Below, in pieces: positions 14,735 to 15,858 of a DNA stretch of 43,119 bases; within the stretch, counting starts at the first letter, position 1; every line of letters begins with the position of its first letter. The DNA is from a virus. Made by a program: the position numbers and the translations under genes. The stretch lies in UHGV virus genome UHGV-0017337. One strand, 5' to 3'. The notes under the pieces were generated by a model, which was not told the origin of the DNA, did not search any database, and saw only the letters and a list, made by a program, of their open reading frames with translations.

Positions 14735-15838
14735 ATGAGTAGGAAACGTTTAACCACAGAAGAGTTTATCACACGTGCCCGTGAAGTTCATGAGCACAAA
14801 TACGATTACTCGCTAGTGGAGTATGTTAAATCATCGGTTAAAGTTCGAATCATTTGTCCGATACACGGAGTGTTTGAACAGAGTCCTAATAATCATGTTT
14901 CAATGAAACAAGGTTGCCCGCAATGTGCTGTTGAACAACGATATTTGAACACCAGAGAATTCATTAAACATGCTCGTGAAGTTCACGGAGACCGTTACGA
15001 TTACTCATTGGTGGAATATAAACACAACCTGAGCAAAGTTAAAATTATCTGTCCTAAACATGGTGTATTTGAACAACGTCCATGTGACCACGTATCAAAG
15101 AAAAAAGGTTGCTCGGGTTGTGCCAATAATCAACGATTAACCACAGAAGCGTTTATCACTCGTGCTCGTGACATTCATGGGGATCGTTATGATTACTCAT
15201 TGGTGGAGTATGTGAACGCTCGTTCGTGTGTGCAAATCATCTGCCCTGAACACGGGATATTTGAACAAACTCCACATGTTCATTTAAAAAGCAGTGGTTG
15301 CCCACAGTGTGGTTCTGAACAAAAAGCAGAACAAAAACGTTTAGGTGCGGGAGAATTCATCACTCGTGCTCGTGACATTCATGGGGATCGTTACGATTAC
15401 TCATTGGTAGAGTATTTGAATAATCGTAGTAAAGTTCGAATCATCTGCTCTGAACATGGTGTATTTGAACAAACTCCTGATACTCATTTGAAAGGTTGTG
15501 CTTGCCCACAATGTTCACAAGCAGGTTTTAACCCGTCAGAACCTGGAACGCTCTACGTGTTAGCTGATGATAAACAGTATCCCACTCTGATTAAAATTGG
15601 TATTACAAATAACTTAAAACGACGACTACACCAACTACGACGCGAAACTCCACACCATGTGGTTAAACTCGTGTCGTATCCATTTCCACACGGCGCTGAT
15701 GCTTACAAACTGGAACAAGAGGTACACAAGGTCTTTCACGAACTTAATGCGCGTCTCAAAGGCTTTGACGGTGCTACAGAGTGGTTTAAATACTCTCCTG
15801 CAATCCTCGACTACATAAATGAAAAAGCCCGGAACTAA
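14735..15838 (+). CDS. T5orf172/GIY-YIG-like nuclease with four tandem ~62-aa Zn-ribbon modules (homing-endonuclease-like)
   Basis: Four repeats of EFITRAR.(I/V)HG.(K/R)YDYSLVEY....KV.IICP.HG.FEQ.P..H...GCPQC. The C-terminal domain reads PGTLYVLADD..LIKIGITNNLKRRL..GATEWF (T5orf172 hallmark). It is a plus-strand gene inside the minus-strand tail module. Confidence 0.8.
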   Translation: MSRKRLTTEEFITRAREVHEHKYDYSLVEYVKSSVKVRIICPIHGVFEQSPNNHVSMKQGCPQCAVEQRYLNTREFIKHAREVHGDRYDYSLVEYKHNLSKVKIICPKHGVFEQRPCDHVSKKKGCSGCANNQRLTTEAFITRARDIHGDRYDYSLVEYVNARSCVQIICPEHGIFEQTPHVHLKSSGCPQCGSEQKAEQKRLGAGEFITRARDIHGDRYDYSLVEYLNNRSKVRIICSEHGVFEQTPDTHLKGCACPQCSQAGFNPSEPGTLYVLADDKQYPTLIKIGITNNLKRRLHQLRRETPHHVVKLVSYPFPHGADAYKLEQEVHKVFHELNARLKGFDGATEWFKYSPAILDYINEKARN

Positions 15839-15858
15839 CCGGGCTTATGTTTATTTTT
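15826..15858. terminator. Bidirectional terminator between convergent genes
   Basis: Stem agcccgg / ccgggct with loop aactaa, A-run upstream and T-rich tail downstream. Both convergent stop codons lie within the hairpin. Confidence 0.7.

Follow-up and report, generated by a model that had tools for sequence, protein, structure and literature searches.

What is a nuclease gene doing on the plus strand of a tail module whose tape measure and tail chaperone genes both run on the minus strand? The DNA analysed here (the window, a stretch of 43,119 nucleotides of UHGV virus genome UHGV-0017337) comes from a Sashavirus-like siphovirus, a group whose genomes are mosaic in general. A sequence-only reading had proposed a mobile nuclease cassette lying antisense between the tape measure and chaperone genes, in a plus-strand islet shared with an Imm-like gene, and profile searches confirmed both the minus-strand flanks and that neighbor. 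In our view, what lies here is likely a free-standing gene of homing-endonuclease type that belongs to the T5orf172 class, within the GIY-YIG superfamily. The parts of the locus are listed below; the cassette was delimited by alignment to insert-free phages and blastn segments, the tape measure variant by blastn comparison.

11852-14437, minus strand: tape measure gene, flank, reading frame intact
13224-14461, minus strand: tape measure gene, variant form of the 5' half together with its leader, in linkage with the cassette
14464-15812, plus strand: inserted cassette of about 1.35 kb, comprising a promoter-like element, imm and the nuclease
14482-14523, plus strand: promoter-like element P1 of the cassette (A/T-rich tract TTTAAAATAATTC, -35, -10)
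14554-14733, plus strand: Imm-like superinfection-immunity gene (imm), encoding a 59-aa membrane protein, first gene of the islet (PF14373, 3.4e-17; PHROG 1039, 1.6e-18)
14735-15838, plus strand: free-standing nuclease ORF of the T5orf172 homing-endonuclease type, 367 aa, coordinates including the stop codon
15825-15846, unstranded: bidirectional intrinsic terminator hairpin GCCCGG-AACTAA-CCGGGC, confirmed
15835-16158 and 16131-16553, minus strand: tail chaperone genes, flank, reading frames intact

Comparing the tape measure/chaperone junction across relatives, as had been proposed, uncovered insert-free alleles in Sasha, PDP46 and AVIO78A, where a 71-bp spacer separates the two genes. On the left, homology with the insert-free phages stops after ...CAGTTTAACACG (about 14463), on the right it restarts at about 15813-15815 (ATAAATGAAAAAGCCCGG...), and the cassette replaces about 13 bp of the spacer. 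Six alleles checked carry the insert, with precise boundaries against the insert-free spacer. The similarity of the flanks does not track the presence of the cassette: carriers and non-carriers are intermixed in identity matrices. Over the 3' half of the tape measure gene, for example, insert-free AVIO78A shares 97.7% identity with the window, and insert-free Sasha 98.4% with Bas82. Insert-free alleles and a presence independent of flank similarity support the idea of a mobile nuclease cassette.

A clean 1.35-kb insertion into isogenic flanks was nevertheless rejected, as the tape measure side is about 75% identical or unalignable over 1.2 kb. Within this side, 13224-14255 has no blastn match in the insert-free phages and 14256-14461 is just 74-76% identical there, whereas the whole of 13224-14461 is 97.7-99.3% identical among cassette-bearing phages. 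The block formed by the tape measure 5' half and imm is likewise 96.7-99.3% identical among carriers, compared to 93.6-95.7% in the adjacent chaperone region. These alignments indicate that the co-travelling segment exceeds the cassette and takes in the divergent tape measure 5' half, to which the cassette is perfectly linked. Because the linkage is perfect, the same picture could also arise if the block had been swapped in once, in an ancestor, with ordinary recombination afterwards. A tblastn search restricted to the T5orf172 zinc-finger family turned up no further member on the far side of the linked block.

The product of the nuclease ORF had been described as 367 residues with four tandem modules carrying C-H-C-C ligands, followed by a T5orf172 domain, and the ORF, the repeats and Pfam all agree with this layout:

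14750-14938, plus strand: zinc-finger module 1 (aa 6-68; C41, H44, C61, C64)
14945-15130, plus strand: zinc-finger module 2 (aa 71-132), its 5' part (14955-15076) forming one crossover arm
15137-15325, plus strand: zinc-finger module 3 (aa 135-197)
15341-15523, plus strand: zinc-finger module 4 (aa 203-263), its 5' part (15351-15472) forming the other crossover arm
15545-15811, plus strand: T5orf172 (GIY-YIG superfamily) nuclease domain (aa 271-359)

The full-length AlphaFold2 model has good local confidence (pLDDT 80.7) and a pTM of only 0.35, as expected for modules that are independent beads. The protein is thus modeled as 'beads on a string': four independently folding zinc-finger modules of the DUF723/DUF4379 type, each of about 63 aa, and a small nuclease domain of GIY-YIG fold.

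Profile searches place the C-terminal domain in a nuclease superfamily, not in a non-nuclease family. T5orf172 (PF10544) matches aa 271-359 at 2e-13 (51.1 bits, cut-off 20), MUG113 matches at 3.7e-13 (50.3 bits, cut-off 22.3), and PHROG 681 'endonuclease' matches the nuclease at 4e-115. In a model of the C-terminal domain (pLDDT 89.3), it adopts the GIY-YIG alpha/beta fold. Its invariant residues are Y274, K287, G289, R297, E327, G346, T348 and E349, with Y274 of the first motif, R297 and E327 being invariant among 15 diverse homologues. The only member of the class that we found with published cleavage data is the origin-directed nuclease Odn (Gp88) of ICP1, which shares the T5orf172 domain and the conserved catalytic Arg and Glu (PMC8263062). 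A profile alignment (95.7% probability) pairs R297 with R148 and E327 with E180 of Odn, and the mutation E180A kills Odn cleavage (PMC8263062). Together, profiles and model put the domain in the GIY-YIG nuclease superfamily with its catalytic Arg and Glu kept, and it is a predicted nuclease. Odn differs in its DNA-binding part, a RepA_N domain captured from a satellite (PLE) against which it serves as a weapon, in place of the four-module zinc-finger array. I-TevI and the T4 Seg proteins are more distant: the window protein has no detectable sequence similarity to them, its nuclease domain is C-terminal (the order is reversed), its second motif is K-I-G instead of Y-I-G, and it has repeated zinc-finger modules instead of a helix-turn-helix with a single spacer zinc finger. 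Searching NCBIfam with the nuclease protein gave no match, PADLOC returned weak matches of the nuclease domain to the candidate defence family PDC-S57 and nothing else, and solved structures searched with the whole protein, a 52-module profile and a C-terminal profile yielded nothing significant.

The array itself appears as a single direct-repeat family of four 179-nt copies starting at 14745, 14940, 15132 and 15336, spaced by 195, 192 and 204 nt. Pairwise, the four modules are 56-70% identical as protein and 62-75% as DNA, and every one of them carries C-x2-H...C-x2-C (CPIH/CPQC, CPKH/CSGC, CPEH/CPQC and CSEH/CPQC in modules 1 to 4). Across 607 related modules, positions C35, H38, C54 and C57 are 99-100% conserved; H48 is conserved as well, and the ligand His is either H38 or H48. 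In this invariant scaffold, positions 27-28, 44, 46-47, 50, 52 and 56 are hypervariable. DUF723 matches at 1.4e-15 (57.4 bits, cut-off 20.9) and DUF4379, annotated 'probable treble clef', at 1.1e-7 (32.3 bits, cut-off 24.5). The modules had been labelled zinc ribbons, a term that, going by the AlphaFold2 model, does not fit: there, module 1 folds as a helix, a beta-hairpin, a short helix and then a helix beginning at CxxC, which places the second ligand pair at a helix N-terminus and not on a second hairpin. As modeled, the modules look treble-clef-like; sequence and profile searches found no solved structure matching the zinc-finger module.

No other part of the locus varies nearly as much as the zinc-finger array. 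Alleles with four modules are found in the window and P0001, with three in Bas82, 536P12 and BDX09P1, and with two in PJ16 and SRR27143231; overall, copy numbers from 2 to 8 were observed. Array DNA is 67-83% identical between alleles, within a neighborhood that is 94-99% identical. Between the window and a phage about 97% identical to it, the difference is an exact two-module indel of 396 bp with a 122-bp crossover in the conserved repeat, the arms lying at 14955-15076 in module 2 and 15351-15472 in module 4. Such alignments indicate that module number changes through unequal recombination between modules, and these changes are in-frame and leave the reading frame open. An array that 'grows', as the sequence-only reading had it, goes too far: the module number does change (4, 3 or 2), but the change in copy number carries no direction, and growth is therefore not established. 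Two of the six alleles are disrupted, by a premature stop in PJ16 and a frameshift in BDX09P1, while imm is still intact, which suggests that the nuclease is dispensable. Such degenerate alleles, along with a second intact copy and a third, deleted one in the window, also count in favor of a homing-type gene, as signs of its life cycle.

How might such a gene move? In a mixed infection, the array would bind the cassette-free allele at an extended composite site, close to the spacer or to where the tape measure gene begins, and the tethered nuclease domain would cut nearby. Recombinational repair could then copy the cassette and adjoining sequence into the cut genome, with an asymmetric carry-along of adjacent sequence that includes imm and the tape measure 5' half. 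The carrier genome would be shielded by a site that is split by the insert or has diverged on the tape measure side (about 75% identity), and the enzyme could be retargeted through gain, loss and exchange of modules with paralogous copies. According to the main paper on the family, sequence by itself does not allow active homing to be inferred (PMC10448857). A bolder proposal, which we regard as unlikely, is that the DUF723-type modules make up a DNA-recognition array which is programmable and occurs naturally, much like zinc-finger or TALE arrays. Each module of about 63 aa would read a short sub-site via a few hypervariable positions, and phages would retarget a GIY-YIG nuclease by adding, deleting and swapping modules. 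If this were true, the four- and two-module alleles in phages about 97% identical would form a ready-made pair whose sites differ in length; the data show modularity, hypervariable positions and inter-module recombination, and nothing on a recognition code.

The ATG of the nuclease lies 1 nt past the imm stop codon. No clear ribosome-binding site precedes the nuclease itself, which probably relies on coupling to imm. Upstream, P1 combines a -35 TTGACG (14495-14500), a 17-nt spacer and a -10 TAACCT (14518-14523), with a palindrome TTACAC-N6-GTGTAA (14503-14520) in the spacer. A 29-mer of P1 has an exact second copy at 29689 and a slightly changed one at 40704, and the element AAAATAATTCTTGAC occurs in nine exact copies in the window (0.16 expected by chance), all nine followed by a TAnnnT hexamer, an RBS and an ATG. 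A simple sigma-70 consensus scan of the window did not call P1, which had been put forward as the promoter of the nuclease; we keep it as a candidate because of the nine-copy conserved element, on the strength of which the islet promoter is apparently a genuine phage promoter. The bidirectional terminator noted earlier is real as a hairpin but is not owned by the cassette: it is resident, being already present in insert-free relatives and hence outside the insertion. The final codons and the stop of the nuclease fall within the hairpin, as does the stop codon of the chaperone frameshift product. Rfam and tRNA scans of the window gave no match, so there is no intron around the nuclease; it does not sit in an intein either, and both flanking genes are intact.

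Could the islet then be a domesticated weapon of competition or defence, kept as beneficial, in which Imm blocks DNA entry of later phages and the nuclease destroys or excludes the DNA of co-infecting relatives or satellites? Co-transcription from this apparently genuine promoter, and probably translational coupling too, tie the nuclease to a superinfection-immunity gene, Odn is a case of a T5orf172 nuclease re-used to such ends (PMC8263062), and both the weak PADLOC matches to PDC-S57 and the better conservation of the imm and tape measure block compared to its flanks among carriers would fit. We nevertheless judge this improbable. The disrupted alleles leave imm intact, and the array is of the DUF723/CapR type seen in putative homing genes, where Odn has a captured replication-initiator domain. 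At this locus, imm accompanies the insert in each of the six alleles checked and is missing from the three insert-free relatives studied in detail; elsewhere the homologues are unlinked, with Bas77 having imm in a similar antisense islet without the nuclease and swi2 having a homologous nuclease adjoining the tape measure gene without imm. Imm as a regular partner of the nuclease was rejected on these grounds. The weapon also overlaps with the homing-type gene that we favor, since excluding a competitor and homing are mechanistically the same cut.

Could the nuclease simply be inactive or irrelevant, a decaying passenger in a segment (tape measure 5' half, imm and nuclease) that arrived in a single event, ordinary recombination having shuffled it and removed it from some phages since then? 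The perfect linkage to the variant tape measure 5' half, the disruptions in PJ16 and BDX09P1 and the general mosaicism of the related genomes would all be expected, as would a third family copy in the window, a remnant at 23948-24316 missing 850 bp. However, the alleles of the window, P0001, Bas82, 536P12 and SRR27143231 have kept their catalytic and zinc-ligand residues, and module-number changes preserve the ORF. Moreover, the family occupies three sites in the window genome, one of them unique to it: the second intact copy adjoins the portal gene, at a site that is empty in all database relatives. Taken together, this makes a mere passenger very unlikely.

Homing-endonuclease-type genes of this kind are well known. 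The gene family spans 1090 phage records with 2402 places and at least 7994 proteins, and Barth, Dunham and Seed (2023) described T5orf172 genes with repeated zinc-finger modules, repeat recombination and positions at tape measure and chaperone genes (PMC10448857). The window gene is an ordinary member of this large family, and the general idea is published (PMC10448857). Like ICP1 gp174 and gp165 and the genes of Vibrio phage Helene, it combines N-terminal repeated CapR/DUF723/DUF4379 modules with a C-terminal T5orf172 domain, is free-standing, adjoins tape measure and chaperone genes, occurs in several copies per genome, alters its module number by intragenic repeat recombination with modules swapped between copies, and is located at boundaries of sequence exchange (PMC10448857). 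It differs in its host lineage (a Sashavirus-like coliphage or Salmonella phage), in having a co-transcribed imm upstream and in a 3' end that runs into a resident terminator; further, a single such gene was found flanking the conserved block, abutting one side, so that the two-sided arrangement of a 'HEG-island' (PMC10448857) was not seen. The PLE repressor CapR has a homologous zinc-finger DNA-binding module, whose domain requires its four Cys residues to bind DNA (PMC8096241), and Pfam CapR (PF21817) matches the window's paralogue at 2.7e-4 as well as several close homologues.

I-TevI represses its own transcription. That the window protein is mainly a sequence-specific DNA-binding regulator with a secondary nuclease domain would have this self-repressing precedent, would parallel the CapR domain, which represses a promoter via its -35 region (PMC8096241), and would suit the position of all three window copies directly downstream of the same conserved promoter element, but it is highly implausible: CapR has a single module with CxxC...CxC ligands and no nuclease domain, the window protein keeps one with invariant catalytic residues, and the regulatory role is putative only, with no binding site identified.

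As the general biology is already published, the value of this locus is that of a clean natural example. One small group of coliphages and Salmonella phages, 94-99% identical, offers several states of the same locus: an empty site, intact alleles with four, three and two modules, a pair of alleles that are disrupted, a second insertion found in the window genome only and a deleted remnant. We know of no direct demonstration of homing and no mapped target site for T5orf172 genes, and this allele set is well suited to providing both; it could also test whether module number and identity govern target length and specificity. Since superinfection immunity and one half of the tape measure gene are both encoded in the co-moving segment, such nucleases may help to shuffle tail-length and exclusion traits between phages.

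A smaller matter concerns modules 3 and 4, for which a near-identical stretch of about 60 bp had been noted and read as a recent internal duplication. The stretch stands: 15158-15220 and 15362-15424 agree at 57 of 63 positions, and at 52 of the first 54. Recent duplication was rejected, as the two modules are 75% identical overall and the near-identity is confined to one patch of about 54 bp on the most conserved motif, a single 30-nt bin reaching 97%. The pattern points to gene conversion, or else to constraint acting on the HGDRYDYSLVEY motif, and not to a recent whole-module duplication. Setting aside the near-identical four-module allele of P0001, the nearest match of module 3 is a P0049 module (80%), P0049 being a gene of the same family at another locus.

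The nuclease gene and an Imm_superinfect gene (PF14373, 3.4e-17) form a plus-strand islet antisense to the tape measure and chaperone genes between which they lie. The sequence-only reading had described this arrangement with an Imm-like gene, and reading frames, strands and the PF14373 match agree. The imm gene ends 1 nt ahead of the nuclease ATG.

Features of the locus (window coordinates) and of the nuclease protein
11852-14437, minus strand: tape measure gene
14735-15838, plus strand: nuclease ORF, 367 aa
15825-15846: bidirectional terminator hairpin
15835-16158 and 16131-16553, minus strand: chaperone reading frames
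aa 6-68, 71-132, 135-197 and 203-263: protein modules 1-4, matching the four DNA repeats

The window derives from a Sashavirus-like siphovirus. Comparing the junction among related phages, as had been proposed, yielded relatives both with and without the insert. In the insert-free phages Sasha, PDP46 and AVIO78A the locus is a 71-bp spacer; Sergei and Solent, like these three, match on the chaperone side only. In the junction alignment, homology between the window and the insert-free phages ends after CAGTTTAACACG (~14463) and restarts at ATAAATGAAAAAGCCCGG (~15813); therefore, ~1.35 kb stands in place of ~13 bp. The terminator is bidirectional, as first read, but it is resident rather than brought by the cassette, already lying inside the 71-bp spacer, and it encodes the final nuclease codons (NEKARN) and the stop.

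The proposed cassette promoter P1 also found support, although a simple promoter scan misses it because its -10 hexamer, TAACCT, matches in only 3/6 positions. The element AAAATAATTCTTGAC occurs in nine exact copies in the window against 0.16 expected (14485, 24385 on the minus strand, 24676, 28537, 29679, 32775, 36429, 38105 and 40694) and resembles an A/T-rich upstream tract with a -35 hexamer. All nine have a TAnnnT hexamer 17-18 nt downstream and then, after 50-65 nt, an RBS and ATG, and the element recurs with ~95% identity over ~40 bp in unrelated Klebsiella phages, e.g. VLCpiS10a and Kpn BU9. Together, these features place P1 in a conserved phage promoter family, probably the early or middle one; the cassette uses the phage's own promoter type. 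A palindrome in the spacer of several copies, TTACAC-N6-GTGTAA, is possibly an operator. The P1 29-mer has an exact second copy at 29689-29717, ahead of a small membrane-protein gene: a 119-aa ORF (29733-30092, plus strand) with predicted membrane segments, which gave no match in NCBIfam, the sole library searched, and may be another exclusion-type accessory gene. Terminator sequences, too, seem to have been reused elsewhere in the genome: the hairpin CCCCGGAACTAACCGGGG (40667-40684), just upstream of a promoter-element copy, has a loop identical to that of the 15825-15846 terminator and a nearly identical stem.

We consider it very probable that the protein consists of a zinc-finger DNA-binding array with a nuclease of the GIY-YIG superfamily tethered to it. 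Four modules with a Cys/His pattern and a T5orf172 domain had been read from the sequence; the repeat search, PHROG and the suggested Pfam check of both parts concur. The gene contains one family of direct repeats, four copies of 179 nt (starts 14745, 14940, 15132 and 15336), the modules being 56-70% identical to one another in protein and 62-75% in DNA, each with C-x2-H...C-x2-C. In Pfam, the modules match DUF723 (1.4e-15) as well as DUF4379, 'probable treble clef zinc finger' (1.1e-7), and aa 271-359 match T5orf172 (2e-13) and also MUG113; the protein matches PHROG 681, 'endonuclease', at 4e-115. Comparison of the C-terminal domain, in unlabelled figures, gave 6.3-6.6 for Slx1/HIGLE, 5.1 for both UPF0213 and the I-TevI catalytic domain, 5.0 for the AtGRXS16 N-domain, 4.8 for PD-T4-3, 4.6 for the UvrC N-domain, 4.5 for Eco29kI and 4.2 for T4 EndoII. 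Eight residues (Y274, K287, G289, R297, E327, G346, T348, E349) are invariant in 15 homologues with identity down to 24%. A profile alignment with ICP1 Odn (Gp88; 95.7% probability, E 1e-8) pairs R297 and E327 with Odn R148 and E180; Odn is a T5orf172 protein that cleaves DNA in vitro, and E180A abolishes its activity (PMC8263062). Therefore, the C-terminal domain is a nuclease domain of the GIY-YIG superfamily that retains its catalytic residues, from which we infer nuclease activity.

In CapR, a domain homologous to the modules, DNA binding depends on its four Cys (PMC8096241). Across 607 modules from homologues, a scaffold of H13, Y17, Y19, Y24, I33, C35, H38, G39, F41, H48, C54 and C57 is 95-100% conserved, while positions 27-28, 44, 46-47, 50, 52, 56 and 59 are hypervariable (>3.2 bits); the latter we infer to be candidate specificity positions. 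We think it improbable that the array forms a DNA-recognition system that could be decoded and programmed.

The inference of a mobile nuclease was right in substance but is not new, since it is a published property of the family. T5orf172 homing-type genes have one or several zinc-finger modules of the CapR/DUF723/DUF4379 kind, like 'beads on a string', recombine between repeats within the gene (e.g. a 228-bp deletion in ICP1 gp174), swap modules with one another, cluster by tape measure and chaperone genes, and play a role at exchange boundaries while carrying neighbouring 'cargo' (Barth, Dunham, Seed 2023, PMC10448857). By tblastn the family occupies 2402 places (up to 12 in one genome) in 1090 phage records, mainly from phages of Vibrio, Salmonella, Escherichia and Klebsiella, and a protein search returned at least 7994 homologues. 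Among the best 120 of these, module number ranges from 2 to 8, many long arrays lack T5orf172 by Pfam and a few of the latter are source-named 'very-short-patch-repair endonuclease'; a four-module T5orf172 protein is unremarkable here. This locus contributes a compact series of alleles in cultivable coliphages, an imm gene co-transcribed with the nuclease, and 3' ends running into regulatory elements that are resident. Imm does not generally accompany these nucleases: Bas77 has imm in a comparable antisense islet that lacks a nuclease, and in swi2 a homologous nuclease adjoins the tape measure gene without imm.

Cassette-bearing alleles at the locus (six), and one protein match outside the six
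Window: 4 modules; intact, 367 aa
KarinMuster_Bas82: 3 modules; intact, 304 aa
536P12: 3 modules; intact, 303 aa
BDX09P1 (L004): 3 modules; frameshift directly after GTLYV (~3574), as deposited
PJ16 (L005): 2 modules; premature stop ahead of the GATEWF motif (3547), as deposited
Logan contig, SRR27143231: 2 modules; intact, 235 aa
P0001 (outside the six): 4 modules; 94% identical to the window protein

Sequencing errors could account for the BDX09P1 frameshift and the PJ16 stop, as could genuine decay. The SRR27143231 contig matches the window at ~97% identity on either side, bases 1-4342 corresponding to 10735-15076 and bases 4221-8708 to 15351-19838, so that bases 4221-4342 align twice, to module 2 (14955-15076) and module 4 (15351-15472). 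The two differ by an indel of exactly 396 bp (132 codons, two modules) with its crossover within the conserved HGDRYDYSLVEY stretch, the product of unequal homologous recombination between modules. Module number thus changes, as the idea of an array growing by duplication required, but deletion in the contig and duplication in the window are indistinguishable as its direction. Module 3, with P0001 left aside, best matches a module of P0049 (80%), which belongs to the family but lies at another genomic site; this suggests module exchange between gene copies. A recent duplication of modules 3 and 4 does not hold: 15158-15220 and 15362-15424 are indeed identical at 57/63 positions, but the modules are only 75% identical overall, and the near-identity is one 30-nt bin (97%) in which every module pair peaks. 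We attribute this to constraint together with a patch of gene conversion.

Identity of the window to insert-free phages
11319-13223: 96-98%
13224-14255: no alignment
14256-14461: 74-76%
15815-16613: 94-96%

Identity of the window to carriers
Tape-measure 5' half and leader: 97.7-99.3%
Promoter and imm: 96.7-98.5%
Module 1: 78-83% (SRR27143231 allele 97%)
Modules 2-4: 67-77%
Nuclease domain: 88.5-90% (SRR27143231 allele 98%)
Terminator and chaperone: 93.6-95.7%

The flanks are asymmetrical in their identity to insert-free phages. The variant tape-measure 5' half occurs only in the four cassette-bearing database phages (97.6-99.1% identity), and the protein is 861 aa long in the window against 971 aa in Sasha. 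Carriers and non-carriers interleave by similarity across the tape-measure 3' half, chaperone genes and tail tube gene, the window being nearest to AVIO78A (no insert) and BDX09P1 (insert), and Bas82 (insert) to Sasha (no insert). Three conclusions follow: the block moved, or was lost, across backbones; its conservation exceeds that of the sequence around it; and the zinc-finger array changes faster than any other part of the locus. The pattern matches that of published T5orf172 genes, with an exchange boundary and neighbouring 'cargo' (PMC10448857). This pattern alone does not separate nuclease-driven homing from ordinary recombination, and Barth, Dunham and Seed hold that sequence alone cannot show active homing (PMC10448857).

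The window contains further copies of the gene. A second intact copy (31913-32788, plus strand; 291 aa, three modules) adjoins the portal gene, with a nuclease domain 83% identical to that of the first. Its insert, 31854-32774, stands for 53 bp of Sasha and is absent from all database relatives, and its final codons (QNNS) and stop lie inside the resident promoter element at 32775-32789. A third copy is a remnant (23948-24316, minus strand). Over its first 70 aa it shares 87% identity with P0049, which another phage carries intact (372 aa) at this locus (L015); relative to L015 the window lacks 850 bp, a stretch spanning three modules and the greater part of the nuclease domain. Expansion, novel insertion and decay within a single genome agree with the typical homing-gene life cycle. 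We regard homing as the likely full explanation for the window nuclease gene. The main alternative, that the nuclease acts as, or became, an inter-phage exclusion weapon together with Imm, is improbable by comparison and overlaps mechanistically with homing.

At the left end of the second-copy insert (~31875-31905) there is a degenerate promoter-element copy, and three copies of a 21-bp unit that encodes VEPVTTA lie at the deletion site of the remnant (~24067-24129). The tape measure comes in two forms, 855-861 aa with the cassette and 971 aa without it (window 13224-14437, minus strand, against Sasha, PDP46 and AVIO78A: L001, L003 and L007), with the N-terminal ~400 aa replaced; the C-terminal half has 94-98% DNA identity in most relatives and ~78% in 536P12. 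Phages with and without the cassette may therefore have tails of different length. The window and PJ16 have nothing at the position of a second variable plus-strand islet, in the chaperone-tail tube interval (window 16553-16659), where the islet gene has 624 bp in Sasha (L001 4378-5001), 168 bp in AVIO78A (L007 4377-4544) and 264 bp in Bas82 (L002 4704-4967) and PDP46 (L003 4379-4642).
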